In this document: positions 9,124 through 29,112 of the stretch, piece by piece
Position numbering within the stretch: the first letter of the stretch is position 1
How the letters are laid out: each line of letters starts with the position of its first letter
IMG/VR virus record: IMGVR_UViG_3300032304_000672
Coordinates: 1 to 64,000 of that record
Direction: 5' to 3' (one strand)
Origin: a virus
DNA length: 64,000 nucleotides
Program-made: the position numbers and the translations under genes
The notes under the pieces: generated by a model
What the model saw: only the letters and a program-made list of their open reading frames with translations
Database searches by the model: none
Told to the model about the DNA's origin: nothing

Positions 9124-9570
9124 TGCCAAAAGAAGAGTTATGTGAAATGGCGGGGTGCAAGAATACAGCATCCCGCCTAACCACCACAGAAACCAAATAT
9201 ATTACTATTTGCGAAGACTGCTGGCATACAAGATACAGAAACTGATAAATGCTATAATAGGTATATAGGTGGCATTCTAGACCCACCTAAATACAACCTA
9301 TAGGAGATTAAAATGGATAAGAACAACGTTCCAGCAGCAAATTACACAGAGGCTCCAAAGCCAGCTTTCCCAGCAACAGACAAGTCATCGCAAGATGGCG
9401 CAGGTCTTGGCAACGGCGGTAAGTAATAATGTGCGTTGAATGCGGATGTGAAGCATTCGGTAGCGAAACAGGAATTGCTTCAGTTGCTATCAATGATGTT
9501 TCAAGAGATGGAGAGTCAGGCCTAACTCTAGACATGACTTCAACACCAGAGCAGACAAGACAATTTATTA

Positions 9571-9786
9571 ATGAGCGATAACGGTACAGGAATGTCAACT
9601 CCGCCAAACAATCAACCGTCTGGCGCAGTAACTTCACAAGAAGCAGCAAGAAAGAATCCTTCGCAGGGTAAGTTTAAGTCTGGGTTTTCTAGCCCAAGAC
9701 CACCAACTAAGATTGATACAAACAAGCATGGTATTCGTAGAGAGACCGTACTTGGACAAAAGAAATCTAAGCCAAAGAAGGTTTAA
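9571..9786 (+). CDS. Basic low-complexity hypothetical protein
   Basis: ORF followed by a terminator hairpin at 9795-9835. Confidence 0.55.
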   Translation: MSDNGTGMSTPPNNQPSGAVTSQEAARKNPSQGKFKSGFSSPRPPTKIDTNKHGIRRETVLGQKKSKPKKV

Positions 9787-10157
9787 TTAAGTATTCCCCA
9801 CTAAGCCCTACTTATAGGGCTGGTGGGGATCTTTATTGGAGATATATGTGCAAAGAATGCGGAAGCTGTGATAAAGAACACAGCAAGACAATAGACGATG
9901 CTATTGACAAAACCCTAGACTCTCCTATATAATTAATAGATATAGAAAGAGGCGGAAATGCTAGAAACATTTTTTATAGTACTGTCATTTGCGGCAGGCA
10001 GATGGTTAGGTATAGAACAGTCTAAGAAGGTAGCGGATACATCTAATACAGATGAATTAGAAGCTCAGCTTTTAGATGCGGAACTAAGAGCAGAAACATG
10101 GAAGCGCAGATACAACAATCTACTTCCAACTACACAAACATCATTTGAGGAATAGTA

Positions 10158-10388
10158 ATGGCATGGTCTTGGGTATTAGCGGCAATTGGGGTAACAGGAA
10201 TATTTTTTGTAGGACGCAAGGTCATATGGGCCTGGCTCCTATTGCTATTTAATGAGTGCCTATGGATCATATATGCTGTAACAACTAAGCAGTACGGTTT
10301 TATAGTCGCAGCCCTTGCATATGGGGTTGTATATATTAGATCTTACATACATTGGTCTAAAGATAAGGTGAATGATATATCACTATGA
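10158..10388 (+). CDS. PnuC-like small membrane protein
   Basis: Three TM helices with a W/Y pattern resembling half-size PnuC-like phage proteins. Confidence 0.6.
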   Translation: MAWSWVLAAIGVTGIFFVGRKVIWAWLLLLFNECLWIIYAVTTKQYGFIVAALAYGVVYIRSYIHWSKDKVNDISL

Positions 10389-10505
10389 ACAAGAAAACAA
10401 TTACATTGATTGGGCTCCTGATAGCCCTTGCTGCGGTTGCGCTTGCAGTATACAACAGCTTTAGTCAACTAAAGGATGTTGATTACGACCTATTTGGAAC
10501 GGAAG

Positions 10506-11810: not shown

Positions 11811-12708
11811 GGAGACATATTATGGGAATACTAGATAATTTAGAAGCATGGCTAGATTTTGAAGAAGAGATCGACAAGGATCCAGAGATAGTGTCAGGAT
11901 ATTCAACAGGCAAATGGTCAGATGATGATGATGCACATCCTACAATTACTCCATTCTTTGGACCAAATAAATAAAGGCGGGGAGGCCGAATAATGTTAGA
12001 ACTACTACTAATAGCCATTACATGGTATATAACCAAGTACTACTATACAAGGTCATTTACCCTTGATGTAGACGATATGGAAGATAATGGTCTAACCCAG
12101 GTAATTTGCAGCAAATGTGCAAGATCAGGATATATAAGCCAAGATAACCTACGTGTTCCCTATTACTGCATGTCCTGCAAATAGACCAAATTAGCTTCAT
12201 ACCCTAGATTCCCCCCTCCAATAAACACCTCTCTAATAGCCTCCTAGAGCCTTATTTGGCATATTCTAGAGATGATCTACCATAAAATATACTACTAATT
12301 CTTGATCAATTACTACTGATATATGTATAGTTAGATATACATGTAATTGAGCCCTCCCTTTTACTCCACCGTAATCCATTTTGCTCCACATAGATCCATA
12401 TGTGTGGCATATTTGAGGGATTTTGTCAATAGCCTCGTAAATGGCATATTTTGCCCACATTGTCAAGGCTTCAGGGGCATTTAATATGTCTCCGTAAACG
12501 GAGAAATTCGCCCACATTTTGACAGATATGGATCTCATTATCTGAGATTCTATATATGTTTCTTTAGATTAATATACATTCTTCTAGAAATTTGAGGGAT
12601 TTTTTATAGCTTGCCGTAAAGGGGAAATTTGGCCCACATTTTTTCCACAAAAATATCCACAGGCTGTGGATAAACCTGTGGATAAGTTTGGGCTATATAT
12701 TAGATTAG

Positions 12709-13125
12709 TTAGATGATTCCCTGGTTCATATGATTTATATTAGATCCATTATTGGTCTCATGTAGCCAAGAGTATCTATAGTTTTGTTCTTGTGTTTGAG
12801 GAAGGGACTTTACGAATTCCCCCCGTTCTTTTGGAGTGATAGGTAGTTGAACTGATTTAAGGTCATTAGATACCTTTATTTTATCAATCACCTTGTCTAG
12901 ATGATTAGCAATGATTAATCCTTCACAGACTGTGCCTTCATTGGCTACTTCTCGTCTGTATCGTTCCGCCTGCTTTTCTACTATCCACGCCACAACTTCG
13001 ATAATGCGGTCTATGGTGTAGATAGGTTGTTCTGCTAGATACCTGCCTAAAGCAGCAGGGTTGAAGAAATGGTCTTCTACTGAGTTTGCTAGTAGTTCTC
13101 CGATTTGCTGTTCTTTGGTTTTCAT
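12709..13125 (-). CDS. Hypothetical early protein
   Basis: ORF with GAAAGG RBS and an upstream TGTCAG promoter. Confidence 0.75.
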   Translation of the reverse strand: MKTKEQQIGELLANSVEDHFFNPAALGRYLAEQPIYTIDRIIEVVAWIVEKQAERYRREVANEGTVCEGLIIANHLDKVIDKIKVSNDLKSVQLPITPKERGEFVKSLPQTQEQNYRYSWLHETNNGSNINHMNQGII

Positions 13126-13191
13126 AGTCCGCCTTTCGTCTATAGATTATAGCAGAAGGGACTGACAAGCGCCAGCCCCTCCTGTACACAA

Positions 13192-13338
13192 TTACTTCTT
13201 TGGTGTTGGCTTTTCTGCTTCGAACGTCACGCCTTGGCTAGCTGCGTCCTCCAGAGCTTTGTTTGCTGCTGATGAGAAACGACCACGGGCCCCTACAGTA
13301 ATTCCCTTTGACTTTAAATATTCACGCTTTGTTGCCAT
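13192..13338 (-). CDS. Lsr2 C-terminal DNA-binding-domain-like mini-protein (48 aa)
   Basis: MATKREYLKSKGITVGARGRFSSAANKALEDAA resembles the Lsr2 REWA..G..V..RGR AT-hook motif. Confidence 0.7.
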   Translation of the reverse strand: MATKREYLKSKGITVGARGRFSSAANKALEDAASQGVTFEAEKPTPKK

Positions 13339-13442
13339 TTGATAATCCCCTTTCAAGAGATAGATGTTTTATTTATTATATCGGATACCCACGATTTTGT
13401 AAATACCCCCGTAAGAGCTAAGATCAGCCCCTATGTTCCGCC

Positions 13443-15308
13443 TTAGATATTAAGTTGTAGATCTTCTGATGTATCTTCATCTAAGAATACATCTGTAGCT
13501 TCGATCTCATCATCTGTTGGGATCTCATCCCAATCGGTTGACGGACGAAGGTTCGCAATCTCCGCTGCTTGATATTCGTCGGCAGCGGAAACAATGGTGT
13601 AATAGTTTGTATACTTGGTACCAAAGACTCTATAGATTGGCAAGCATTTCCCTCATTTCCCATTCGGCATATGTACGGACAATAAAGTCCTTATCTAGAT
13701 TATAACAATACAGGACAGCTTTTGTCAAGGAATCCGTCTCATATATTGGCATGTCCATTATGACCTCATTGTCCCCTTTGTCATATACCTCAAAGGTTCT
13801 AATTCCTCCAGGTGAACAATCATATGCAACTTCCAGGATTTCTAAGCTAGGCTCATAATGAGTCATTTGTTCCCTCATCCCCAGACATACGATCTTTGAT
13901 AAGTTTGCTAATGATATTATGTGCTTCGATATTTTCTGTTTCAGACCCACCCCACAAAAGCTTTTGGGCTTTGTTTAATTGATCATTGATATAGATATCA
14001 CTCATCTTCATCTTCTTCCTCCTCTTCGTCTTCTTCAAACATTGTATCCACAATGTACTCACGATTCATCATCCATTCAAGTACGTCATCGTTGTGCTGT
14101 TCCGCCCCGTACTCCAGAGAGAAGCCCTGGCCCGCCTCTACAGCCTCACAGAGGTGGTCCCACATCTCATCTATGGTGCAGTTCTGCTTGTAGGTCTCAT
14201 CCTCAAAGATGTTGTTAATGGTAGACCAAGTCCATAGCCAAACTAAGGATAGACCTAGGTCCGTTGTATCTAGAATCTTTAAACATTCATTTAGTTTATC
14301 TTTATCTTCAGGCTTCATCCCGTGCTCCTTTCGCAAAAGCAATGTCATATGTCAATTTGTACAAATCTCCTAGAGCGTCAAGGTACCCTTCTAGGTGTAA
14401 GCGGTCCACGGTTTGGTCATACTGTTCGTCATCTTGATTTGTATATTCAGATAACTTCTTTTCTGTTTCAACCATTAGGACCTTTAGTTCCCCGTGCATT
14501 ATGTCAGCCCCGTCCATTCCGATGTTTATCATACGTTGCAAATGGGGCGGGAGCCCAATGTCTTCATTATTCATTAATATACCTTTCGTTAGAGTTATTC
14601 ATTATATCAGTAGCCACTGACAATAAATGTTCGGTTGCCATAATTTGTCCCTGGATATTAATCTTAGATTGAACATTGTAATCACCCTCTAAGTCCTGGT
14701 TAAGACTAATTAGATGTAACTTCATATACTCCAGGAAGTATGATGATTTAGTTTGTGTAGTCAAAGTAACCCTCCGCCCACAGACCTTGCAAGAAACTAA
14801 CAGCGTCTTCCAAGTCTTTCCTCAAAGGCTCCTTGTTCATTAAATCGGACGGGGTCCTAAGATAAAAAAGCTTTGAATCGTGTACAGCATTAATCATTCT
14901 ATTTAGATCAGACTCAGTGTAACCTAGCATAGGTCATACTCCATATCCCAAGATACATCAGGCCAATTTAAATCATATCTTGCGCTATCAACTTCACCTA
15001 AATCGTTTAGGTGTAGATTAATTTTCTCGTGTGCTTCTTTCTCATTATTGGCCATTACTGCACCTTCTAATTTAATTACAAATCCATACTTATTCAAAGT
15101 AGTCCTCATCTCCTTCTGTTAGGTTATAGAATTTATTAAATTCAGATTGAATAAACTCATCTCCTGACATTTCAGCAAATTGTTTATCTGCATAATATTG
15201 CCCTTCGTCAAGATTACTATTAATCCAATCTTCAAGTAATTGTTCTGCTATATCTTGGTAGCAAGCGTCAATTACCATTTGATTTACATCTTCTAAGAAA
15301 CTAGCCAT
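13443..15308 (-). CDS. Run of ~9 coupled small, mostly acidic hypothetical genes
   Basis: ORF track: 13443-13643, 13630-~13866, ~13853-14005, 13998-~14320, 14308-14574, 14567-14764, 14748-14930, 14924-~15100, 15090-15308. Confidence 0.7.
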
Positions 15309-16092
15309 TTAGCGCTTCCTCCTGTGTGTAGGTTTTCAAAGGTAATAATACACTATGGGTCTGACATTCTTTCATAGCCACCTCATCCTGCCAAGAGCCT
15401 TCATTACATTCTGAGCAGAATTCACCGCAGTCATCTTCACAATAACTTAATGTATCGTAAGACTGGCAAGCATAGCAACGATTCTCATATTCAACTAATT
15501 CTTTTACTTCACCACGGACAATCTCATATTCCCCACCCCAACCTGTTTCTTCCTCAAACTCTAATGTAAGCAGGCAGTTAGGAACAAGATTACTTAGTTT
15601 AGTTAAGATAGTTACAGCAGGTGACCAAGCCGTCTCATACTTATAGACAACCCAGTTGTCATCACCTTCTGATTTATATTCAAGCAATTCCGTATTTGGA
15701 TATTTATCACCGTCACGGACGGCTACATCCCATTTAGTTCCCCAGTTGGAGTTATTCCACGAATACCAATCCTTCTGTGTCTTAGCAAACTCAACAGATT
15801 TGCGGAACCAATCAGGGTCATTCTGAATATCTATACCACCACGAGAAGGCTGGCAGGCATACTCTTCATCAGTAATACCTTCATCTTTATATGAGTGAAT
15901 ATTGAAGAAAGCAAAGACAGGATTAGAATAACTTACCTGTTCAATTTTGGTGGGGAATCCTGAAAGACTAATATCACCCATACCATAAGTCTCTTGTGCT
16001 AATGTAAATGGACTATTCAGTCTATCCTTGATATAATCAACTTCTGACTTTGGTCCTTGAATTGTTAACGTATTGTAACACCAATTTGGCAT
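15301..16092 (-). CDS. DUF1281/YubB ferredoxin-like protein with C-terminal Cys cluster
   Basis: MPNWC.N, WGTKWD and TAWSP motifs. Confidence 0.8.
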   Translation of the reverse strand: MPNWCYNTLTIQGPKSEVDYIKDRLNSPFTLAQETYGMGDISLSGFPTKIEQVSYSNPVFAFFNIHSYKDEGITDEEYACQPSRGGIDIQNDPDWFRKSVEFAKTQKDWYSWNNSNWGTKWDVAVRDGDKYPNTELLEYKSEGDDNWVVYKYETAWSPAVTILTKLSNLVPNCLLTLEFEEETGWGGEYEIVRGEVKELVEYENRCYACQSYDTLSYCEDDCGEFCSECNEGSWQDEVAMKECQTHSVLLPLKTYTQEEALNG

Positions 16093-16264
16093 TTTATTTC
16101 CTTTCGCTAATAACCCAATTATATACTAGACCACTGACATTTGGAATACCTTTTGGGTGTGTTCCACACCACATTTTCCAAGCTATGTGGTCAAGATCAC
16201 AAAATTTCAGGGGAATTATATTGACTTCCGTAAAAGAGATATGATACCCTCACCTGTTGCGGGC

Positions 16265-16415
16265 AAACAAAAATCCCCCAGGGCAAGCTGGGGGATCAGA
16301 TAAGTAAGGCTGCTAGCAGAACGAAAGGAATTTAGTAAACGCTGCTTTATTTAACGACTTGGGGAAAACCCTAGTAGCCGCACCATACTTTAATGAAAAG
16401 GTCCGCTAGGACCTA
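16265..16415 (-). ncRNA. Candidate sRNA carrying the anti-RBS loop UUCCUUUCGUU
   Basis: Extended -10 TGCTATAAT at 16429-16421; nested stems; terminator ATCCCCCAG/CTGGGGGAT followed by a U-tract; no ORF. Confidence 0.55.
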
Positions 16416-16441
16416 TTCATATTATAGCATATCTTAGTTAA

Positions 16442-16846
16442 CTAAACTGGGACAACAACATCTGCGTACTTCTCAACGAAGTTACTCAGGTCCATAGTAA
16501 AGAGCGCTTCATTGCTCATCCCATTAACCTTGTTATCCAAATCATTCCTTGGCGCCTCTTCGTGAAGACTGAATGTCTGCTGCTGGAAATCGACAATAGC
16601 AATCTTGTGCTCGTTATCGCCAATCTCATTTACGTGCAAGCCCCATCCAGTTTCCATATTCCACTGGTCCGCAATCATATTACTGATTGTGATACGTGTT
16701 GCATATGAAGGGTCATTCCAACGAGGACGTGCTTTAAACACTGCCTCTGCTAGATTCGCTAGCATTTTATGGCCTGCCCAGTGACCGTATAGTACAATTG
16801 TATTTCCGTTAGGTTGGACGAATCCAAAGTTTGCTCTATCTCCCAT
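16442..16846 (-). CDS. Hypothetical protein
   Basis: ORF with RBS. Confidence 0.75.
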   Translation of the reverse strand: MGDRANFGFVQPNGNTIVLYGHWAGHKMLANLAEAVFKARPRWNDPSYATRITISNMIADQWNMETGWGLHVNEIGDNEHKIAIVDFQQQTFSLHEEAPRNDLDNKVNGMSNEALFTMDLSNFVEKYADVVVPV

Positions 16847-17413
16847 TACATTTCCGCCTTTTCTAGTTGAGGTACTTCTTCGGTTTTATTCAATTCTATC
16901 ATTTCAAAGGAGACCTTGTCAAGGGCCTCTTTGTTTTTATTATAGTGGTGGTGGCAAAAGAAAAGCTCACCATCTACTAGTTTAATTAGATACATAGCCT
17001 GAGCTGTACCGCATTGATCACAGCCGATCCATCTAGTTAGATCCTCAGAGGTCATAGTCAACGGTTCCAAATTCAATACGGTCTGCAATGTCATCGTATA
17101 CTTGGCCATCATCCTCAGACTCAGCCCACACACGAATGTTTGCGACAATTACTTCACGAGCAAATTTGACGCCGTCTTCAAAACCATCTTGGTAATCCAT
17201 TTTATCTCCTTGTATATCCTGTCGGTTCGTAGTCTGATGTATAACTCTCTGTGAGATTATACTTATCTCGAATCCGACTTACTTTCTCAATGCTACCAGT
17301 TCCGATGTTGAATGTCAACGGTGATAATGCAGTTGGGTCCAGCCCAATCATCTGAGCATCCCAATAGGCCATCTCCATAGATAGCCTATCGGGAGCAGTC
17401 AACTCAAAATACA

Positions 17414-18049
17414 TTATGCTTCCCTCACATTACAAACTTCTTGGTCACCAATTTCAATGTTACCATTGTTTGATTCAGCAAAGATAGCATCTGTAATTTC
17501 TGACTCAAGGTCTAAGTCATAATCATTTTCAAGAATGTTGTAAGAATATGTTCCGCTAACTTCGATAGATGCGGTCCACTCAACTTCCTTAATTAATTCA
17601 ATTGATAGCGCTTCAGCAATTTCACGCAATGTGTCTTGGTCTTGTGAGTCTGCATATGCCTCGCAGATAATTTCCTTAACTGCATCAATCTTGCCATTTA
17701 GAACGCCGTTAGTCTTCTGTGCTTGACGGGCATTGTGCAGGTCCCATTCAATTGATGTAACCTTATCAGTTGCATATTCTGCATCTGAATATCCACGGAT
17801 AACTTTATAGGTTACCAATAGATTAGGGTTATATGTATCAGGCACCGTTACTGTGTTTGTCTCTTCCATTTTATTTCCTTCCGTTTCTGTTGGTTGTATT
17901 GTAGCATCTTCGACTGACAATAACACTGTACTATTGTTACACGGGCATGTGATATTAGTCACAGGCTGAAATGCATCGGGACATGTAAATTCAATTAAAG
18001 AATCACATGTACTGCACACGTATGTATATTTACTCCAGGTTTGTGTCAT
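17414..18049 (-). CDS. Hypothetical protein with Cys-rich N-extension and internal start at 17869
   Basis: Leaderless start at 18049; internal promoter and RBS before MEETNT. Confidence 0.7.
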   Translation of the reverse strand: MTQTWSKYTYVCSTCDSLIEFTCPDAFQPVTNITCPCNNSTVLLSVEDATIQPTETEGNKMEETNTVTVPDTYNPNLLVTYKVIRGYSDAEYATDKVTSIEWDLHNARQAQKTNGVLNGKIDAVKEIICEAYADSQDQDTLREIAEALSIELIKEVEWTASIEVSGTYSYNILENDYDLDLESEITDAIFAESNNGNIEIGDQEVCNVREA

Positions 18050-18175
18050 GCGAGTATTGTACAGGACCCCACTGACATTTACAATAGAATTCAGGGCTTT
18101 TTTTATGTGATCCGTAACACAGAAATCCTGCCTTCAATGTTGCGGGCGTCTCATATATTGAGAATCAAATCTTAG

Positions 18176-18249
18176 CGATCCATATCGGACTTGAACCGAC
18201 GGCCTCTACCGTGACAGGGTAGCGCTCTAACCAACTGAGCTAATGGACC
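18176..18249 (-). tRNA. tRNA-Asp(GTC)
   Basis: GGTCCATTAGCTCAGTTGG...CTGTCAC...GGTTCAAGTCC cloverleaf. Confidence 0.93.
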
Positions 18250-18290
18250 TAATGGTGAGCAGTTTTAAATCTTGCTCAGGATTTTTTTAT

Positions 18291-19295
18291 TTAGAAAGTT
18301 GCAACCATTCGATACAACTTATTTTTTTCTGCGGTTAGAATTGGGTCAAACCCTGATGCACCCGCCATAAGAGTTTCACCATTGCCACGACCTGAACGAT
18401 AGTAATCAAGGCGCTCAGTTAGTGCATTGAACGCACCCCACTTTGTTCCCTTGATTGTAGCGTTAGTTGGTGAGTTGTGATACAAATCGTCAATGAGAAC
18501 AACTTTGTTTTCCCATTTCTTCAATGAACCCTTCAAATCCTTGTCAGGCTTAGGATAGATTGTCTGAATCAACTTAGAGAATTCAGCATCGGTGATTGCT
18601 TGTGAGTAAAGTGCCTTTGCTTGAACTTCGAATTCATCAAAGTATCCAAGAGCAAGCCCAAGAGTTTCACGAGCAACTTGAATGCGACCTTCAACAGATT
18701 GCGTGTGGCGAATCTTGAAAGATTGCTTAGCATTCTTCATTGCAAGGTTTAGCGTGTTTTGGCATACAACACGAACAGGTGTAACGGCTGCTTGAACAGC
18801 AACAGAACCATCGTGTGAAGTCCAGACAATGAGATAAAGTTTTGTCTCATCGTTGGCGCCTTGTGGGTCAAGAACCATTGTGCGTGGAATGTCCACAGTT
18901 CCGAACACAACTTTGCCCTTCTTTAGTGAGCCAGCAGATTCCCAACGGCAATCAGCATTGGCATCGTGAATTGCATCAGCGAATGCAAACAGTTCTTCAT
19001 TCTGAACTGGCTTGTAACGTTTTCCAACAGTTGCGAGAACATCAGTTCCGCCGTTGAATGGATTGTCACGAATGACAAGAGATGCTTCTGAAACATCATT
19101 CCAAGATTCTGAAATGTGGTCAGTTAGTGGAGACAAGCGAACATTCCAATTTGCTAACTTTGCTTCTTCAAGCATTGTTGCAGTTGTAACTTCCTCATCT
19201 TTTGTGAAGATACGATTTGCAAGGTTGTGCCAAGCAGGTGCGCCACGAAGAGCAAATGCAACTTCGCCGTTTTCGACTTCGAGATTGTGAGCCAT
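18291..19295 (-). CDS. DUF932/DUF945 family (TIGR03299-like phage/plasmid protein)
   Basis: MAHN...AWH, Y.PVQN, SHDGS, RVVCQNTL and RHT motifs. Confidence 0.9.
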   Translation of the reverse strand: MAHNLEVENGEVAFALRGAPAWHNLANRIFTKDEEVTTATMLEEAKLANWNVRLSPLTDHISESWNDVSEASLVIRDNPFNGGTDVLATVGKRYKPVQNEELFAFADAIHDANADCRWESAGSLKKGKVVFGTVDIPRTMVLDPQGANDETKLYLIVWTSHDGSVAVQAAVTPVRVVCQNTLNLAMKNAKQSFKIRHTQSVEGRIQVARETLGLALGYFDEFEVQAKALYSQAITDAEFSKLIQTIYPKPDKDLKGSLKKWENKVVLIDDLYHNSPTNATIKGTKWGAFNALTERLDYYRSGRGNGETLMAGASGFDPILTAEKNKLYRMVATF

Positions 19296-19505
19296 TTATT
19301 TCCTTTCGATTAGTTGTTGATTGCAATTATAACAGGTGGCACTGACATTGTCTAGATTAGTTAGTCATTTGTCCGAATTGTCTGGGGTGATCATTATCAC
19401 AAATTTTTGGGGGTTTTCCACAGGTAGTCGTAAGGCTGTGGATAACCCCGCAGCTCTGCGGGCAGCTGGGGAAATAGGGCGGGAATAAGATCCCGCCCTA
19501 AGTCT

Positions 19506-19745
19506 TTAGATTAGTTTAGTTAATTCAGTTTTCTTAGGAAGAACGTCCATTGGTAAAAACAAAGCAGTTGTTTTCTTTTTCTTTATGTTGTCATAAACAA
19601 ACGCTTTAATGTTTCCTTGAAATCTGCGTAGATTAGAAAATACCATTTCAGTTAAGTATTCTTTATCTACACCTTGCTCAGAGTAAAGAGTTAAATCGTT
19701 AGCCTTTACTTCATCATAGATTTCAATTCTATAACGATTTTTCAT
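19506..19745 (-). CDS. Hypothetical protein
   Basis: ORF with RBS; downstream hairpin at 19476-19500. Confidence 0.7.
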   Translation of the reverse strand: MKNRYRIEIYDEVKANDLTLYSEQGVDKEYLTEMVFSNLRRFQGNIKAFVYDNIKKKKTTALFLPMDVLPKKTELTKLI

Positions 19746-19890
19746 TTTGTTCCTTTGTTAGTAGGGATACGAATTATAGCATTGGGACGTATAGTTTGTC
19801 TAGCCCCGTAGGGTTGAGCAGTTTTGCGACTTACTCAGGTCGTTTGGGTTTAGGTGTCTAGACTTTGTGTGCTAACCCCCCAAAACCTAT

Positions 19891-20307
19891 TTAGAGATAC
19901 TTAGCAATCTGCTTCATTGTAGAAGCATTTACTGTTTCCTCATCTGTCATTTTGAGAATTGTTAGGGCATTTGTAATGTCCTCTTTCATCTCACGATAAC
20001 TGTGCTGATGGATTTGCTCAAAATCCTTTTCAGGTTCAGCAGGGAAGTTGCCTTCCTTTGTGATAATGTCAAAATCAACATTGAGAGTGTTGTTCCATTG
20101 ACGATAGTTTGTGCGAAGGTTCTCAGCCTTTGAGAAGTTAGCAATAGCCCACTTACCAATTTCCTTTTTCCACGCTTCTACTGCTTTCTGAAACTTTGCT
20201 TCTTTTTCTGATTGTGAAGCATAGTCTTTCTCTAGTGTTGCTAGACGAGTTTCTAGTGCCTTGATTACTTTGGTAGTTGCTACCTTTACTGTGATTTGTC
20301 TTGACAT
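19891..20307 (-). CDS. Hypothetical protein (start revised to MSRQ)
   Basis: RBS and promoter lie inside the track's longer ORF. Confidence 0.75.
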   Translation of the reverse strand: MSRQITVKVATTKVIKALETRLATLEKDYASQSEKEAKFQKAVEAWKKEIGKWAIANFSKAENLRTNYRQWNNTLNVDFDIITKEGNFPAEPEKDFEQIHQHSYREMKEDITNALTILKMTDEETVNASTMKQIAKYL

Positions 20308-20439
20308 TTTTTCCCTTTCGTTTAGTTTGTTTGGTTGTATTGTATCAGGTGCTACTGACATTTCCACCCGAAGGTGGAGAGTTCTTACTTACGACATTGG
20401 ACTAGAACACTCTCTAAACTGTCCCTGTTTCGATTTTAT

Positions 20440-20595
20440 TTAGTTGTTAGGTGCGCTAGTCCAGCGTTCCTTGCCATTTACATCAAGCAGGATACGATTT
20501 GTTCCGCTAGGGTGATTATCAACCGCCTTGATAACTCCTGTGATACCGCTTGTTGTTGTTGTGTAGGTCTGACCTACTTCTAGTGTTGTTGTCAT
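20440..20595 (-). CDS. Small beta-rich hypothetical protein (start revised to MTTT)
   Basis: GAAAGGAA RBS and promoter upstream. Confidence 0.7.
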   Translation of the reverse strand: MTTTLEVGQTYTTTTSGITGVIKAVDNHPSGTNRILLDVNGKERWTSAPNN

Positions 20596-20710
20596 TTTGT
20601 TTCCTTTCGCTAGGGTTGTTATTATACAGGGTGGGTCTGACATTTTCCACCCCAATCTTATTATTTGAGATGATAAGCGTGTGAGTAATCTCACACGCCT
20701 ATCTTGATCC

Positions 20711-21204
20711 CTAGTCCTCGTATTGAGGGAGCCACGCTTCTAGGTGGTGAGCATCTACTATTGCAGACGCAGGGCAGGAAGTCTGACCTCGCCAAGTGAT
20801 ACCTTCAGGAAGATTAATCTCTCGACTATACTCCTCATCATAGAACGCATCAATAGCGTCTATGCAAGGTTGCACCATTGAGACGGGAACGGGTGGGTAA
20901 TGATTACCTTGTAAGTGATAGGCAAGTCCTGCCTCTAGTCCTAATTCTTCTTCTAGTGCTAACGCTGTTGTGTATCCCATTAGATAGTTTCCTTTACTGT
21001 TAATTCTGCCCAAGTGTTATTTTCATTTGCTACTGTTAGTGTGTTAGACATAGCAAGAGCGTTAATTGTTGCATCCTTACACATTTGCTGAATTGCAGTT
21101 TCATCAAGAGCAATTAGCGCAGGCAATAAGTTTGCAGGGATTTTATCCAAGTCAATAATTGCCTCGAATACTACTGTGTGTGGAACTTTCATTAGGTTAG
21201 ACAT
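20711..21204 (-). CDS. Two coupled hypothetical genes (20980-21204 and 20711-20980)
   Basis: TAATG overlap. Confidence 0.7.
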
Positions 21205-21495
21205 TTGTTACCTTTCGTTGTTGGAATAATGGTATTTTACACTAAGCCACTGACATTACCTAATCCATTATGGGCGTGTCGCAGCTTTTGTGAGATTAAT
21301 CACAAAATTTCAGGGTTATCCACAACTAGTCCGTAAGCCTGTGGATAAACCCGCAGTATTGCGGGCCCTTTACTCTTCTTCGGACCAGATATCAGGATCC
21401 TTTTCTTTTAAATATTCTAGTGCAGCTTTTCTCTGATCATCAGTTCCCATTACCGTGGCCATTAATGCATTGAAGTATTCCATTTTTATTTCTCC

Positions 21496-22215
21496 TTATT
21501 TTTTAGTTGCGCTAAATCGAATGTCTGCTTTACCGTAAACACATAATCCACAAGATACACAAGCAGAACCAGCATTGCTAATTAGTGGAATTGATTTCAT
21601 ATTCTCAGGACACTTAGCGCCAGGCTTGCCCGTCAATTCTTTCATTGTGCTTTCGGTTACGGCGAATGTCTTCCCTAAGTATGCAAGGCGAATACCTTCA
21701 TTTGCTTTTAGTTCGTGACCGATTTCTTTATTATCATCGTCGGTAGAATAGTAAAGAGATAGGTTAGATACATCCTTAAGAATAAGCGCTGCAGACTTTA
21801 CACGTGTGTAAACCCAGAATTGAACATCGGTGTGCTCATTGATTACATTCTTCCAGGCATAAGTATAGAAATCATTAAAGAAATCCCCGTCCCAGTGGAT
21901 ACGGAATAACTTAGGAGCGTCTTTCTTATCACAATCAGATTTAAATTCAATAATCATTTCATTTAGCAATTGATACATTGTTTCCATATCAGCATTGCGT
22001 AGCAATTCCCAATTGTGTAGAAGATTAGTTTTTACTCCCTTGAAGAGTTTTTCCAATTTTCCTGCGTAGCAAACACTCTCACAAATACTAGTGGCACCAG
22101 GGCACGAGTAATCCTTTCCAGCGGGGAGACCGAACGTGTTAGCAATTGCGGCTTGCTTTCCATTTTTTGTGACAAGGTTAGCCACCTTTCTATCATTAGA
22201 ACGTTTTAGTTTCAT
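21496..22215 (-). CDS. Gp88-like Cys-rich (Fe-S/radical-SAM-like) protein
   Basis: CPGA...C...CYA, RIHWDGDF, YTR and C..C.LC motifs; leaderless start MKLK. Confidence 0.75.
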   Translation of the reverse strand: MKLKRSNDRKVANLVTKNGKQAAIANTFGLPAGKDYSCPGATSICESVCYAGKLEKLFKGVKTNLLHNWELLRNADMETMYQLLNEMIIEFKSDCDKKDAPKLFRIHWDGDFFNDFYTYAWKNVINEHTDVQFWVYTRVKSAALILKDVSNLSLYYSTDDDNKEIGHELKANEGIRLAYLGKTFAVTESTMKELTGKPGAKCPENMKSIPLISNAGSACVSCGLCVYGKADIRFSATKK

Positions 22216-22246
22216 AGGCGTAATTATAGCGGTTAGGTCCGACATA

Positions 22247-23873
22247 TTAGTAATCTTCATCCATACCAAAACCAGCGGAAGCAAGAGCATCGGAATCAGC
22301 CCAGCCAGTTAATTCATAGAATTCCATTTCTTCAGCATCATAGCATTCAGCGCAGATATAGTCATCACCATAGATTTCATATTCTTCAATTGAATCGAAA
22401 GTTTCTTGAGCACCACAAATTTCATAGTTCAAGCAAGCGACAGTAAATAGTTCCATTATGGACCTCTTTCGTTAGTAGATAGTGGAATTATAGCAGACTA
22501 GACTGACATTTTTTGCAACTCGCTCAAAATTCTAGGGTGTTTTAGATCACACCCGTAACGACACGCCCGACTCCGCAGCTCTGCGGGCATCCCGCTTGTT
22601 TGTCAAGCGGGGCACACCATTTATTTAACGCTAACCTTTTTCTTTTTTATTAGCGCTTTAATTTGTCTTTCTGTTACTCGTGTTCGTTCTGTTGAATACT
22701 TATAAATTGTTCCCGCCTTCTTTGCTTCCTTTACATAGATGCGGTCAAACTCTGCACGATGCTTTTTAATTAACTGCTTTACTGCTTCGTTTCTAATTGC
22801 TGTTGCTGGTGGTGTCATTTTTATTCCCTTTCGTTTTTGTTTTTGTGTTTTGTTTTGCGTGTGTATTTCTTTTTATTCCTAACAGGTTGCGCCGCATTAC
22901 TGCGACGCAATTCCTGAATGCGTTTTACCTTATCAAGAACGGAACTGCGGAACATTATACCCACTCGCTTCGTGAAATCGTTTTACATCAAATCGCTCAT
23001 TATCTTTTGCGAACATCTCCGCAAAATCATTTACCATTTTAGAAAATACAGCAGGGTGAGTTTTATTGCTGACATACTTTAGAATTTCTGCCGTTGCGAT
23101 GTAATCTTTTCTAGTCATCATTTTACTGCCACCATTCCGCTACGATAGAAAACTTTTGTATAGCATTTGCCTGCTGGCGTGTAGAGATTAACTGTAGAGT
23201 ATTCGTTAGCCATTCCCCAGTCGGTGAATAAGAAAAAGTTTTCCCACGCACCAAATTCGCTTTCGTATTCTGCTGACCAATGCGGAGCATTTGAGTCATA
23301 GGCGCAAGTTAGTTTATACATTATCCATTTACCCAATCTACTGTTAATTCATCTGCTACATCTGCGATACAATCGCAAGGCTCGCAATCATAATTATTTT
23401 CATTTCCCCAAAATACAAATCCTGCGCCACCGCATTCATCACAATTCGCTGCGATTATTTCTATGTATTCTTTCATTTTAGCCATTTAGGTTTTCCCTTT
23501 CGTTTGTTTGTTTAGTTATTGTATCAGGTAGCACTGACAAATTAGATAGCGCCCTCTTGAAATAATCCAATTTCAAGAGTTAGCATTTCATCGGGTGTTG
23601 CTTCGGATAAATCTACCCAGCCAGCACCCTCGTTGTCCATTCGGAAAATTTCGATGTATCCCATTATTATTCACCAACCTTTACTGCGATTGTTGCGAAT
23701 TTATTTCGCAGACCGCCAGCACGAACCTCGATTAGATAGGCTTCAGTTTTTTCGCCATACCAAATTTCTGGGCGGTGTTCCGCTGAAACGATTTCGCCAG
23801 AAAAATGGCGATTTCGTGAGCGATAGTTTTTCCCTACAAGTAGGCTTTCGATTGTGTATAGTTTGGTAGCCAT
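22247..23873 (-). CDS. Series of small hypothetical genes
   Basis: 22247-22456, 22621-22818, 22933-23121, 23118-~23320, 23667-23873 and short intervening ORFs, with RBS. Confidence 0.65.
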
Positions 23874-24127
23874 TGGCAGACCTTCTTTCGTTTGTTGTTA
23901 TGTATGGAATTATACACGAACGGACTGACATTTTCACATTACTAGCCAGTAAATCCAAATAGTGAGACGCTCAAGCCGTGTGATACTAATCACATAAAAA
24001 TGTCCGATTTGTCTGTCAAATCGACACGCCGTAGAATTCAGGGAATTTTATAACAAATCCGTAACGACACGCCCGACCCCGTGCCTTTGCGGGCCAGCTT
24101 GAGTTTGTCAAGCCGACACGCCGTTAG

Positions 24128-25795
24128 TTATTCAAAATCTTCAAATATTTTTTCTAGTTGAAGAATTTGCTCATCGGTAAGATGATCTAATTCGATTGCG
24201 TGTTCGAATCCATAAAATTCCATTTTTATTTTTCCTCTTCTTCTAAATTAAAAGTGTTTTCTAAAACGGAATTTGCTTTAGTTAAAGCGGATAACGCATT
24301 CGCAAGACTTTCCTTGCGTTGTGTTTCAACGTGATTTTTAAATTCTTCTAAATTCATTAGTTAGACTCCTTATCTAAACAGTTAATACAATTACAATTTT
24401 TACTAGAGAATAAAAACTTTAACAACTCTTTACGAGTGTAAGTATCTAAACCATAAGAGGATTTTACTCCGCCGTTATGGTAATCGTGAACGATAGTAGA
24501 GAATAGAGTTTCATTTAGTGTAGTCATTTGAGACCACCTTTCTTTTAACGATTAAAACCTTATTTAATCTTGATACTAGTATCCTATCATAGACCACTGA
24601 CATTTTGACCCCTTTTTCGGGCGTGTCGGAAAACTATTTTTGTGATTTAGGTCATGTGGATAACTTACGCTCAAATTTTGGGGGATTTCCACACCTGTGC
24701 ATAAAGCTGTGGATAACGCCCGCAAAAGACTGCGGGCCGAATCGCCTTTGTCAAGGCGACACGCCGTTAGGCTAGTGTGATTTATCCCACTCTCTAAAGT
24801 CTGCGACGATCTCCCGCCACATTAGGCGGAGCATTAGCAGGGTAGGTATTCCGATACCTAATTGGACGGCGGTAGTTAGTAAGCGATTAGTAGTCATTAC
24901 TTATTCTTCTTTCTCTTATAAATCTTATAAGCGATTAGTGCTAGGGCGGTGATAATAATAGTGTGCCAAGGTAAGTAGATAGAGCCTAAGAAACTATCAA
25001 ACTCTAATCCGTATTCGCTTGTTATGTATAAATCAAATCCGTTAGGTATCATTCGTATGCCTCCCAATCTAATGTTAATGATTTAGATAATTCATCTTCA
25101 TCGTATTCGGTAGAGCCTAACTCTATTAAGCCCTCTTCTAGAGCCTTGTTATACATTTCTTCTTCATCAAGATAGACATAAGCGTCTGCTACATCTGCCT
25201 GAATAGTATCCCATTTAGTCATCATTACTTTACCTCTACTTCTCTAATGTTATAAGTGAAACCCTTACCGAGTTTATTTAGTTCAGCAATTACCGCTAAG
25301 ATTTCTTCAGGCTTACTAGCCTTTTGATTTACGGCTAATAGTTGAGAGCCTTGCCATAGTGTGTAGGTTATTGTCATTTTATTTTCTATCCTTTTCGTTA
25401 GTTGTTAGTTGGTTGTTGAGCGATTATTTGCTAGGCTCACCTTTCGGATTATTTGCTAGGCTCACGCTCTAATTCTTATTTAGTTATGGTGTAACCTTAT
25501 CACGGGCTACTGACATTTAGTCGGATTTAGCCGATAGTGTCGGTGTGATTATGCTCACACTTAGACTCTATCTCGTGTCCGTATTCCTCTACGAGTTCCT
25601 CGTAGATTTCGTCCATATAGTCAAGATAATCGTTCATTAGTTATTCTCCTTTCCAAGAGTGTTGTGTGTAGCGTAGTTACCGCCACACATTACGCAGAGT
25701 GTCCAAGCGGTTACTCTACCGCACCCTGCTGAGCAAGATACATAGTCGTTATTAGTAAGGTAGTCGTTACGACTTTCCCAAATTCTGTTTGTCAT
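24128..25795 (-). CDS. Array of ~9 translationally coupled micro-ORFs (25-58 aa)
   Basis: Translated by eye; TAATG/ATGA overlaps, RBS and promoters present; below the ORF-track cutoff. Confidence 0.65.
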
Positions 25796-27156: not shown

Positions 27157-27412
27157 ATATCTTCTCTTCCCGCCGCACTTTATTTCTTAAATTTAGTCCA
27201 AAGCCAGAATTTAATACCTTGAATAGTCTTATCTATTTTCTGCTCGACTCTAATATCCTTCTTATTAAAACTTTTAGGACTATTGCTTAGATTAAAGAAA
27301 TGTCTGGGCATATAATAATTATATCTTATATTTGTATGTGGTTCTACTTTCGCCGCACTTTTTTCGGGCGCACTTTTCAATTCGCACTTTATTTAGTATA
27401 CTTATAATATAT

Positions 27413-27780: not shown

Positions 27781-28539
27781 TTAGTCCCAAATGCTTTGTT
27801 GTTTTGGATTAAATTCCCAAGGTACTTCTTTGTATTTATCGTCTTCGGTTAAATCGTATAGAATATCCATAAGGACTTTGCAGTCATCGTGTTTCCATGT
27901 AAGAGTACAATGCCCATTTTCTACATTTAGGCATTTATTTAAGTATGACTCTATTTTTTCTACCATCCACTTTAAAGCTTCAGTGGCTTTTGATACGTCT
28001 TCGTAAACGGTTTTTTCCGCCCGATTCATCCTATACGCTATTTGATCAGCGTGGATTCTCTTCATCAGCACCTTGTGGAGTAAATGATGGGGTCGGTCCA
28101 AGAAGAAATCCCTGGTTATGATATTCAACCATCTTGGATACATCTTCTGGACCAACTAGCTTATTAGCAATAAGTGTAAGTAGGTCGTATATGCGATGAA
28201 GCATAATGTAGTTGACCATTGGAAGATTATCTTCTAAATTTTGTGGTTGTTCATTTTCCGTCATCTGGTCTACCCATATCTTCCCAAAACTTCTCTCGAC
28301 CCATTTGGTCTGTTTCTTTTATTTGTCCACCGTCAGTTTGAATCAACGGCTGATTTAAGTTCTCCATAGTATTCCAATCCCACAGTTTTCTTGAAGCTGC
28401 ACGATAAGCAGTATAGATAAATTATACCTTCATTTGTTTCGTTGCACATTAAAGGGCCCTGATCCAGTGGACATTCAAGTCTAGGAACAAGGCCCTTCTC
28501 TGCAAGCAAAAGGTACTTAGACACGTACTGTATCTTCAT
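27781..28539 (-). CDS. Small hypothetical genes (27781-~28030, 28046-28264, 28333-28539 Zn-ribbon)
   Basis: ORF track; CxxC motifs in 28333-28539. Confidence 0.65.
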
Positions 28540-28551
28540 GTACCTTCCCCT

Positions 28552-29112
28552 CTAATATTTGAATTCCGCTAGGAACTCTTTGTATCTTGCCCCATTCAGG
28601 GAAGACCACGATGACCAATCAGTGCCGCCTTTAGTCATATAATACGTTATCTCTGCGTTTATTACTGGGTCAAACAATAAGATGTTTGACTTTAGATCAA
28701 ATTTTTCTTTACGATCAATGCCGAGTTCACCCAACATATTAATCTGAAAAATTCCGTAGGAACTGTCTCCAGTTTTCCTGTTACCATTGTAAGCCATAGG
28801 CCTTGAATTGGATTCTGACTTAGCAATAGCCCAAGCCTGTTTAAGGGCTTTTCCTTCAAAGCCAACAGCTGATAGGAGTTCTTTTAGTTCTCCGTCTGTT
28901 AGCGTCTCAGAAGGCTTGTACACAGTAGTGCTGTACTTCTCTAAGGTTTCTTTCTTTAGTTGTACTGTTGATTTCACAGGTGCTTCCACCTGCAATGCTT
29001 GACTAGCTGTTGGTCCAGGCTGGACAGTAAATAAAAATAATGTTATCATTCCTATATACGACCAGTTATGAGCAACATCACTCAAACGTTGTTTTACTTT
29101 CTCCATTGGCAT
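28552..29112 (-). CDS. Membrane-anchored/secreted lytic transglycosylase (lysozyme-like SLT fold)
   Basis: IAKSES catalytic Glu, SYGIFQIN, DPVINA and W..W motifs. Confidence 0.85.
   Translation of the reverse strand: MPMEKVKQRLSDVAHNWSYIGMITLFLFTVQPGPTASQALQVEAPVKSTVQLKKETLEKYSTTVYKPSETLTDGELKELLSAVGFEGKALKQAWAIAKSESNSRPMAYNGNRKTGDSSYGIFQINMLGELGIDRKEKFDLKSNILLFDPVINAEITYYMTKGGTDWSSWSSLNGARYKEFLAEFKY

Follow-up and report, generated by a model that had tools for sequence, protein, structure and literature searches.

A strand-locked, gapped DNA signal in the early-gene block of a lake actinophage, with a possible parallel in the injection-stop region of phage T5

What is a gapped DNA signal of ~55 bp doing in ten copies, all in a single orientation, within the early-gene block of a lake actinophage? 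The question arises from a 64,000-nucleotide stretch of the IMG/VR virus record IMGVR_UViG_3300032304_000672 (positions 1 to 64,000, hereafter the window), part of a genome of 103,695 bp. The original prediction described ten copies of RGGG-N16-CGTAA, and the count stands: nine exact matches lie on the + strand (at 12416, 12473, 12595, 16209, 18093, 19409, 21312, 22534 and 24040), and a tenth copy at 24680 carries CATAA instead of CGTAA, against a chance expectation of 0.36 and a maximum of 3 in dinucleotide shuffles. All ten fall within 12.4-24.7 kb, and the rest of the genome holds no further exact match on either strand. The flanking blocks were also correctly described, with CCC 18 nt past the start of CGTAA, and GCGGGC 29-32 nt past it in the seven dispersed copies (ending at 16264, 18147, 19463, 21366, 22588, 24094 and 24737). 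The early genes lie on the minus strand, on which the unit reads GCCC-N10-GGG-N13-TTACG-N15/16-CCCTGAA; this is the orientation used below unless the + strand is named.

Three of the copies are clustered at 12.4-12.64 kb, as had been claimed, where either direction leads into antisense or non-coding DNA. The first (12412..12460, minus strand; position weight matrix score 48.5) reads TGTGGGC-N12-TTTACG-N16-CCCTCAA and contains, within its N16 spacer, a TTGACA that is kept in relatives; the second lies at 12469..12517 (minus strand, score 32.5), and the third (12591..12639, minus strand, score 52.3) abuts a cluster of DnaA boxes at 12641..12693. In + strand order this cluster comprises TTTTCCACA, ATATCCACA and two TGTGGATAA 3 bp apart, its last three boxes forming a conserved triplet; the two TGTGGATAA and an inverted box thus stand next to the three tandem elements. 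Replication-origin iterons are laid out in a like manner, as direct repeats in tandem with DnaA boxes and AT-rich DNA alongside, a resemblance of layout alone. Beyond the ten copies, the weight matrix adds two degenerate ones on the minus strand to the predicted number: one near 13414 (13385..13432, score 10.0), which keeps GGGGC..TTACG..TTTACA without CCCTGAA and overlaps a sigma-70-like TTTACA-17-TATAAT promoter, and one near 28006 (27978..28025, score 15.4), in which CCAC replaces CCCT, downstream of a minus-strand lysozyme-like gene (28552-29112).

The signal is not peculiar to this phage, being common to hundreds of related phage contigs. Its recurrence in relatives, on which the original prediction turned, is borne out by 80 related IMG/VR loci, in which 201 copies lie on the gene strand and 3 on the opposite strand. 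In five near-complete relatives every copy occupies one strand, and all but one (in G001, at 74.9 kb) fall inside one 10-12 kb block; the number of copies differs between relatives. The blocks GCCC, GGG, TTACG, AAAA and CCCTGAA are conserved and the spacers between them variable in sequence. The claim of rigid spacing holds for the geometry as a whole, with the amendment that the distance from TTACG to CCCT is not strictly 16: it is 15 in 58 unique copies, 16 in 93 and 17 once, with no other value across the range of 10 to 23. The proposed CCGCA/TGCGG hairpin fared less well. Among the relatives, neither GGG..CCC with its inner arms nor GCCCGCA/TGCGGGC is paired more often than shuffling would predict, and this absence of base-pair covariation argues that the element is read as DNA sequence and not as structure. 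A structured RNA, an intrinsic terminator and a cruciform were accordingly rejected, the pairs not being kept by compensatory changes and the element finding no match in Rfam.

Where, then, does the signal sit with respect to the genes? Followed on the gene strand, each of the seven dispersed copies comes after an early transcription unit, 40-134 nt ahead of the next promoter. The copy at 16205..16264 directly follows an intrinsic terminator (16297-16272) and has a PafBC-type promoter 94 nt on, near 16139; that at 18089..18147 lies downstream of a tRNA-Asp gene, with a PafBC-type promoter 40 nt on; that at 19405..19463 again comes right after an intrinsic terminator; and those at 21308..21366, 22530..22588 and 24036..24094 are followed in the direction opposite to transcription by the weak copy at 24676..24737 (score 7.0), which is the first to be encountered by transcription and has TTATG in place of TTACG (all on the minus strand). 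The statement that every dispersed copy lies upstream of a TGTCAG promoter is right for six of the seven, which have TGTC(A/G)G-N10-TAnnnT, a PafBC-type promoter, 40-134 nt downstream; for the copy at 24040 the pattern match, 134 nt on, lies beyond the next gene start, and the promoter-like site that directly follows is of the TTGACA type. Of 227 copies, about half lie 0-40 nt past an upstream stop codon or terminator, and the distance from element to next promoter is variable, from 18 to 134 nt. In a comparison of six genomes, the early block opens in five with one to four PafBC-type promoters that no element precedes; at its 3' end it has tandem copies, two or three in number, except for a single strict match in G002.

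The spacers were said to hold sites for host regulators, and at the level of sequence this is supported for DnaA and partly so for CRP. Every one of the genome's seven perfect TTATCCACA boxes is inside an element or next to one, and the three copies named as carrying them (19409, 21312 and 24680) do contain perfect boxes, as an inverted pair in the N13 and N16 spacers of the first, as two boxes in the spacers of the second, and likewise in the spacers of the third. Amongst relatives, 172 of 253 unique DnaA boxes lie within 60 nt of an element, DNA that makes up only 3.6% of the total, giving an enrichment of ~19-fold. As for CRP, the 18093 copy has a TGTGT-N6-TCACA palindrome centred on TTACG, and the 22534 copy, for which a site had also been claimed, offers a half match only; a further CRP-like site starts 11 nt past the CCC of the 21308..21366 copy. 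The shared cargo CGACACGCCCGA is found in both the 22534 and the 24040 copies as described, and on the gene strand the N13 spacer of each holds GTCGGGCGTGTCG.

Cultured Streptomyces phages carry the core in a weaker form. The freshwater-family profile gives no significant match on these phages (E = 0.2-2), and the suggested link to them rests on the short core together with its context. The BE1 records (EGole, Coruscant and Riptide) are linear with a terminal repeat of ~11 kb (11,341 bp in EGole). Matches to the core are confined to the opening ~800 bp of each copy of this repeat, where they lie on the minus strand; the remainder of the ~130 kb has none. There the copies point toward the DNA end, 220 bp off, with nothing to transcribe; PafBC-type promoters occur all through the repeat, and elements only at its end. 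The DnaA triplet is recognisable too, with an 11-nt insertion, in EGole, whose three perfect DnaA boxes are found beyond the repeat, 50 bp from its boundary; in the BE1 phages the start of the terminal repeat falls between the DnaA triplet and the element array. In the BE2 phage Gilson, a three-copy cluster and a near-identical DnaA triplet share a 1.76-kb non-coding gap, and four dispersed copies keep the strand of the cluster though their flanking genes run the opposite way. All seven Gilson copies are antisense to genes when read as TTTACG..CCCTGAA, and orientation in BE2 follows the genome map and not the local genes. The terminal repeat of Gilson measures 766 bp and the cluster is located elsewhere, which rules out the cutting of ends as a general role.

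The original prediction offered several readings of the element, of which a protein-binding site and a DNA-entry or packaging signal fit best, given a tandem cluster embedded in a conserved non-coding DnaA-box module that, in the cultured BE1 relatives, brackets the physical start of the terminal repeat. We tentatively favour, whilst holding it at somewhat below even chances, a polar DNA signal that is read by a protein, belongs to a module of genome end and DnaA boxes, resembles the injection stop of phage T5, and has had copies added at the boundaries of early units. The conserved non-coding end module would consist of the DnaA-box triplet and a tandem array of TTTACG-N15/16-CC(C)NGRA in one orientation, to which the freshwater lineage would have added single copies after each early unit, always in the orientation of the array. 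A candidate sequence-specific DNA-binding protein, probably phage-encoded, would occupy the boxes; host DnaA, and at some copies a CRP-type regulator, would dock in or beside them; and the resulting complexes would serve as polar holds or boundaries along the DNA, one at each early-unit end and three at the end of the block, a logic that has been proposed for the injection-stop repeats at the inner end of the T5 terminal repeat. None of the 30 early ORFs has a Pfam DNA-binding domain that would single out such a reader. By homology, the region at 12.2-12.7 kb is probably the same boundary as the start of the BE1 repeat, and the leftward early block probably the terminal repeat of this phage; we infer the long repeat here, as the record displays only an 83-bp overlap of its ends.

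Judged by the prohead protease, the lineage is distantly T5-like. In the terminal repeat of T5 the pre-early genes run leftward, and the injection-stop region combines DnaA boxes, paired at a distance of 3 bp, with oriented direct repeats (10.1101/866236). Both are large siphoviruses with, probably in our case, a long terminal repeat and small early genes directed toward the end, and the untranslated repeat regions of T5 ('Repeat Region 3') offer the nearest parallel: a non-coding region at the repeat boundary, DnaA pairs 3 bp apart, many direct repeats in one orientation, and related repeat regions dispersed inside the terminal repeat. The DNA at 12.4-12.7 kb is likewise non-coding, with paired DnaA boxes and oriented direct repeats, and its location at the boundary of a long terminal repeat is seen in BE1, probable for this phage, and contradicted in Gilson. 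The T5 repeats (e.g. TGTGCAAATCCGACA), however, share no sequence with TTTACG-N16-CCCTGAA, T5 lacks a four-block scaffold holding cargo in its spacers, and copies at every early-unit boundary are a feature of the phage studied here. As an analogue the T5 region has a function that is itself unproven, as is that of the element.

Could the element instead be a promoter? The original prediction had raised a + strand promoter for an alternative sigma factor, and in geometry and -10 block the element does look ECF-like: TTYCAGGG-N15/16-YCGTAAA, with a hexamer-like and an octamer-like block 15-16 bp apart, inside the 15-19 bp of the sigma-70 family and its tolerance of about 1 bp, spacers of only 15 or 16 nt and rigid spacing of the other blocks, would suit an RNA polymerase holoenzyme that is ECF-like or modified by the phage. 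Such a promoter would, in this phage and in BE1, fire inward from the genome end and antisense to the early units. Its firing would silence these units, and might also prime replication or help to draw the DNA in; in BE2 it would run in the sense direction. A 'CGT'-type -10 is a feature of many ECF promoters, and the + strand element has one, along with a T-tract past its -35 block. Antisense promoters could well be placed as the elements are, one where each early unit finishes and several in tandem where the block does. The spacer and +1, which harbour DnaA and CRP-like sites, are classic places for operators, and in Gilson the + strand reading is co-directional with the genes: tRNA-Gln lies 9 nt past the end of one copy, and start codons lie 29 and 37 nt past the ends of two more. 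Against this, Sigma70_r2 (PF04542) has no match at E <= 1 in the six lineage genomes (this one and five relatives), and the only sigma region-4-like match is in a 53-aa frame. The core is common to phages of Streptomyces and of a low-GC lake actinobacterium, hosts so different as to argue against one host ECF, and in this phage, as in BE1, such a promoter would yield nothing but antisense or non-coding RNA. We found no known actinobacterial sigma motif that fits; the SigH/E/R motifs, to our knowledge, do not, and TAnnnT is absent at a fixed offset in either direction, making appropriation of sigma-A unlikely. ECF-sigma promoters such as that of sigma-ShbA/SigD (CGTAAC-N16-CGATGA, PMC12019637) come close: on the + strand the element shows two blocks across 15/16 nt, a CGT in the downstream one and a T-tract past the upstream one, a tract also remarked on for ECF promoters in PMC12019637. 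The element does not fit the ShbA/SigD sequence, however, and its upstream block TTCAGGG lacks the AAC hallmark. On balance we regard a + strand promoter as rather unlikely, though deserving of attention. The same geometry read on the gene strand, with TTTACG as -35, CCCTGAA as -10 and an A/T tract at the UP-element position, would equip the early units with another promoter, timed differently, ahead of the PafBC-type one and co-directional with downstream genes in the freshwater family. Phages commonly carry early and middle promoters in tandem, and tandem promoters combined with AT-rich DNA are an origin design of T7 and T4; at the cluster, such a promoter would activate an origin by firing into the AT-rich DNA beside the DnaA boxes. 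We consider it improbable: the BE1 copies aim at a DNA end 220 bp away, those of Gilson are antisense throughout, the first units of the block lack the element in five of six genomes, the A that sigma-A requires is a G or C in the '-10', and again no sigma gene was found in the six lineage genomes.

Two further readings concern events on the DNA itself. Virion DNA could be interrupted at the elements, on one strand, by nicks or by short gaps. In T5 nicks occur in one strand only, with one major nick in the injection-stop region, and the single strand laid bare at an element could switch on, locally, the PafBC-type promoter downstream of it. The strand lock, independent of local gene direction across lineages, would agree with this, as would the distant T5 kinship, the promoters downstream of six of the seven dispersed copies, and PafBC itself, which single-stranded DNA activates and which can bind gaps (PMC11804915). 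A 55-bp four-block site nevertheless far exceeds any nick motif known to us, the T5 nick sequence in the record (GCGC context) is unrelated to the motif, and in BE1 the promoters run throughout the repeat with elements at the end only, leaving nicking with a slim chance. The suggestion of a recombination site that shuffles early gene cassettes, in the manner of integron attC sites or T4-type promoter-stem-loop (PeSL) cassettes, found no specific support and is very unlikely. The elements do bound gene blocks, their number varies between relatives, and segments have been replaced and re-ordered among these (part matching 22.8-25.1 kb of the window); yet the breakpoints fall in intergenic DNA generally, synteny is mostly kept, orthologous copies retain their own cargo, the BE1 element occurs at the genome end only, and four blocks at fixed spacing are conserved well past the needs of homology-driven exchange. 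Scans of 50 ORFs against Pfam or PHROGs brought up no conspicuous recombinase.

Other repeated signals of phage genomes bear a partial likeness. The stoperators of mycobacteriophage L5 and cluster A are likewise many asymmetric sites in short actinophage intergenic spaces, in one orientation with respect to transcription, at which a phage protein presumably halts elongation with a polarity. Stoperators belong to a temperate phage, however, in which each is an uninterrupted 13-bp site for the prophage repressor, in contrast to a 55-bp gapped site in a phage whose scanned ORFs include no recognised repressor or integrase, and the orientation of the element in BE2, unlike theirs, does not follow transcription. 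The PeSL cassettes join a terminator hairpin to a promoter, and can be gained, lost and shuffled. Like the intergenic repeats of halovirus HF2, described in PMC8707807 as short repeated regulatory cassettes, they lie between small early genes; these repeats, however, are themselves the terminator and promoter, whereas the element sits between the two at variable distance and also forms a gene-less terminal array.

The RGGG-N16-CGTAA scaffold proposed in the original prediction has nine exact matches, all on the plus strand, against 0.36 expected; a tenth copy reads CATAA, and nothing further matches across the entire genome. Three copies form a tandem cluster at 12.4-12.64 kb and seven are dispersed as far as 24.7 kb. 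Read on the minus (gene) strand, the unit becomes GCCC-N10-(TG)nGGG-N13-TTACG-N16-CCCT(G/C)AA followed by a T-rich run, and a weight matrix built from relatives recovers the ten copies together with two degenerate ones near 13414 and 28006. Relatives were gathered via the DUF932 gene, which gave 286 related IMG/VR stretches. Among the best 80 of them (protein identity at least 90%, DNA approximately 70-85% identical), counts of the strict pattern were 201 for the gene strand and 3 for the other, against 7 and 29 for a reversed control pattern. The roughly 250 distinct copies obtained from the 80 share the blocks GCCC (-30 to -27), T-G-n-GGG (-19 to -14), (T)TTACG(A/G), AAAA and CCCTG(A/G)AA then TTT, separated by variable spacers; the spacing from GGG to TTACG is fixed in 224 of 253 copies, and that from TTACG to CCC is 15 or 16, with essentially no other value. 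Five near-complete relatives carry all their copies on one strand and, apart from a single copy at 74.9 kb in the relative G001, within one 10-12 kb block. As far as literature searches reach, the element is undescribed.

Along the direction of transcription, the early intergenic regions follow a common order: stop codon, often an intrinsic terminator or GC hairpin, element, variable stretch, promoter, leader, gene. The element starts 0-40 nt past the stop codon in about half of 227 copies, and in 30% of distinct copies CCC is followed by a CRP-like TGTGA that begins exactly 11 nt on. The stretch that follows ranges from 18 to 134 nt, so there is no fixed phase between element and downstream promoter. 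The promoter itself takes the PafBC-type form TGTC(A/G)G-N10-TAnnnT, and is followed by a conserved ACGAAAGG leader and then the gene. That such a promoter follows each dispersed copy held for six of the seven, in which the pattern lies 40-102 nt on, but not for the copy at 24040: there the nearest match, 134 nt on, is already beyond the start of the next gene, and the element is directly followed by a TTGACA-type site instead. Between 13167 and 25870 of the window the PafBC-type pattern occurs 14 times on the gene strand and never on the other; allowing TGTC(A/G/C)G-N10-TAnnnT, the minus-strand TGTC starts are at 25870, 25515, 24602, 23930, 23539, 22508, 21255, 20360, 19347, 18077, 17919, 16139, 14622 and 13167. 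Six genomes were compared, and in five of them the block opens with one to four PafBC-type promoters that have no element ahead of them. Two or three tandem elements stand at the 3' end of the block, past the last gene (one strict match in the relative G002). The PafBC-type form is also present in the Streptomyces phage EGole (TGTCGG-N10-TAGACT), with a similar ATCGAAAGGG leader.

The window is the opening 64 kb of a 103,695-bp IMG/VR record, which is rated complete by CheckV and has an end overlap of just 83 bp. No useful DNA match, near or distant, was found in the cultured-phage collection; the nearest proteins are those of Streptomyces BE-cluster phages (Stanwilliamsviridae), with a prohead protease about 45% identical, and T5-like phages (Serratia phage Slocum, Vibrio phage phi 3) are more distant protein relatives. 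Considering these BE-cluster relatives, a phage-encoded WhiB protein, and DUF932, GP88 and DUF7455 among the early proteins, the host is an actinobacterium. The sole hit in a GroES search for the host, 83% identical to the phage's own protein, sits on a 3.7-kb contig (JALQTA010000056.1) binned in a 'Candidatus Paceibacterota' MAG, which is probably a mis-binned phage fragment and no evidence on the host. Genes run on the plus strand from 1 to 12.2 kb, as small minus-strand genes from 12.7 to 27 kb, and on the plus strand again from 27.4 kb, where tRNAs, ribonucleotide reductase, tail, portal and protease are encoded.

The linear records of cultured Streptomyces phages place the element within a wider architecture. 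In EGole (BE1), the element recurs 124,312 bp apart, giving a terminal repeat of 11,341 bp, in keeping with the terminal repeats of about 11 kb published for BE1 genomes (PMC5764925). As in our phage, a leftward block of small genes runs toward the left end, with DUF932 at 1.6-2.8 kb, and the final 1.2 kb before that end is non-coding. This end stretch holds five minus-strand TTTACGA-N14-17-CC(N)GRA boxes (at approximately 673, 638, 426, 292 and 220), a pattern found elsewhere in the 135 kb solely at the equivalent places in the right repeat copy; in the BE1 phages Coruscant and Riptide the core boxes are located as in EGole. Three perfect DnaA boxes, forward-reverse-reverse, lie 50 bp outside the EGole repeat boundary with the array inside it, and the repeat start, or left genome end, therefore falls between triplet and array. 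Gilson (BE2) has a 766-bp repeat located away from its box cluster; three boxes stand at 120.3-120.47 kb in a 1.76-kb non-coding gap, a DnaA triplet almost identical to that in the window lies about 540 bp to their right, and four more copies are spread over short gaps between genes at 97-104.6 kb. An nhmmer profile built from the freshwater copies scores Streptomyces phages at a non-significant E = 0.2-2, with several of its best matches being the boxes named here, and returns nothing on T5 or Rhodococcus phage Trina. The profile alone thus shows no homology with the BE elements, and the proposed link is drawn from a short shared core, its restricted location, its strand and the DnaA triplet next to it.

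The comparison implies that the tandem copies at 12.4-12.64 kb represent the element's ancestral form, within a conserved non-coding module that separates the end of the right-arm genes from the early block. Homology with BE1 also makes it probable that a long terminal repeat, collapsed by the assembler, begins around 12.2-12.4 kb. When structural genes are set on the plus strand, all three groups have their boxes on the minus strand. The element is co-directional with the genes in our phage and antisense to them in Gilson, in which seven of seven copies are on the minus strand amid plus-strand genes. Its orientation tracks the module and genome map rather than local genes. Any function on behalf of the flanking genes becomes less likely as a result, and the evidence points to a genome-wide polar process or a DNA-bound protein complex.

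The DnaA boxes reported in the spacers were confirmed: the 104-kb genome has seven perfect TTATCCACA boxes, and every one falls within element spacers or adjoins the tandem cluster. The relatives have 253 distinct perfect boxes, of which 172 are at most 60 nt from an element, although such DNA amounts to just 3.6% of the total. At the cluster, one forward box is followed by two reverse boxes 3 bp apart (this phage has a fourth, weaker box besides), a forward-reverse-reverse set kept in five of six related genomes. In its terminal region, G002 retains the TTTACG elements and has TATATACA-type words where other genomes have DnaA boxes, and the two parts of the module are therefore separable.

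The element is read as sequence and not as structure, given that its arms pair at the shuffled level and without covariation. Pairing of the arms around TTACG, in ungapped registers, was no commoner than under column shuffling, and the CCGCA/TGCGG hairpin that had been claimed fared no better: its GCCCGCA/TGCGGGC stem likewise lacks covariation and pairs at column-shuffle level. An RNA or DNA hairpin is thereby ruled out for both pairings tested. Copies that resemble a long hairpin contain an inverted pair of DnaA boxes in the two spacers, and Rfam returned tRNAs only, with nothing for the element.

The closest known system is the set of untranslated repeat regions in the terminal repeat of phage T5. 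In the T5 record, leftward pre-early genes lie in a repeat of 10.2 kb, which 'enters host cell first'. An injection-stop signal (9140-10149) is annotated where this repeat has its inner boundary, with a major single-strand interruption inside the signal. This region contains paired DnaA boxes 3 bp apart and nine oriented direct repeats, and related repeat regions occur further inside the terminal repeat. Membrane-bound DnaA has been proposed, without experimental proof, to halt the entering T5 DNA in this region (Davison preprint, 10.1101/866236). We group the element with the DnaA-box-bearing repeats that mark the terminal-repeat boundary in T5-like phages. The T5 repeat sequences are unrelated to ours. 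Our element has a sharply defined motif and is found at every early-unit boundary as well, and the sole detected tie of the actinophage lineage to T5 is a weak prohead-protease match. The nine T5 direct repeats (9750-10480) carry AAATCCGACA, and (A)AATCGGACA recurs near early promoters at 19360-19380 and 24000-24020 of the window and in EGole; this likeness may be chance.

What, then, reads the element? We tentatively favour, at somewhat short of even chances, a polar DNA signal that is read by a protein and belongs to the end/DnaA module. It would act as a hold or boundary, present singly where each early unit ends and three times over where the block ends. A plus-strand ECF-like promoter is possible, though rather unlikely: the geometry fits, it would run in the sense direction in Gilson, and one copy there ends 9 nt before a tRNA. 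In our phage the transcripts would be antisense and would start from the 3' end of each early unit. Six genomes of the lineage yielded no detectable sigma factor, neither strand bears a TAnnnT box, and sigma-ShbA/SigD (CGTAAC-N16-CGATGA), the only CGTAA-containing actinobacterial ECF motif found, does not fit. A promoter on the gene strand is a poor prospect, with the BE1 and BE2 data speaking against it; a -10 box at a fixed distance past CCCTGAA was searched for and none was found. The suggested recombination site that shuffles gene cassettes is very improbable, as the breakpoint analysis gave breakpoints that are not element-specific. As for phage-encoded readers, a phage sigma factor or PafBC mimic was rejected (no Sigma70_r2, no WYL domain), and Pfam found no DNA-binding domain in 30 early ORFs. 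The lone region-4-like match, a weak sigma-70-type helix-turn-helix (E = 2.9e-4, below the Pfam cut-off) in a 53-aa frame beyond the window at 95694-95786, is a small DNA-binding candidate.

The analogy with T5 invites two further readings. Strand-specific nick sites as in T5, which could supply single-stranded DNA to PafBC, have a slim chance of being correct. We also consider it quite unlikely that the elements are programmed checkpoints on the incoming genome, acting as entry brakes and/or strand-specific nicks. The first-entering terminal repeat would then be parcelled into units, each released or activated in turn; the brake would be provided by spacer sites for host DnaA or CRP, and the PafBC-type promoters that follow would be fed by exposed single-stranded DNA. 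If true, this would be a multi-step version of the two-step T5 DNA transfer, wired to a host DNA-damage sensor and found in a large uncultured actinophage family.

The purpose of the T5 repeat/DnaA-box region has been without explanation for decades, and a comparable layout (oriented repeats and paired DnaA boxes at or near a repeat boundary, beside early genes pointing at the end) is now seen in an actinophage lineage that includes cultured Streptomyces phages open to manipulation. With a sharply defined motif and cultured relatives, the reader of such end modules is therefore testable. For these lake phages, the element comes as a further layer on top of the PafBC-type early promoters.

Several smaller features accompany the early block. 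At its non-coding head, opposite the tRNA cluster, AAGTGCG(C/G)C is repeated four to five times on the minus strand (27210-27400). A non-coding minus-strand stretch between two early units (16267-16425) has a terminator at both ends and a weak, sub-threshold Rfam match to MicX (25 bits against a gathering score of 75). The word GGCGTGTCG, which contains a WhiA-like GACAC, occurs seven times in 3.5 kb (21273, 22567, 24030, 24073, 24122, 24620 and 24765), adjoining TTGACA or within element spacers. Minus-strand hairpins with the loop TTGACA(A)A are found at 22590-22615, 24100-24125 and 24745-24770, and also in Gilson, where the design is regular: the preceding hairpin carries the -35 box in its loop, and AAGCTTG and a -10 box come next. 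Most other gene gaps in Gilson contain a UUCG or GNRA tetraloop hairpin, then AAGCTTCC, then a Shine-Dalgarno sequence.
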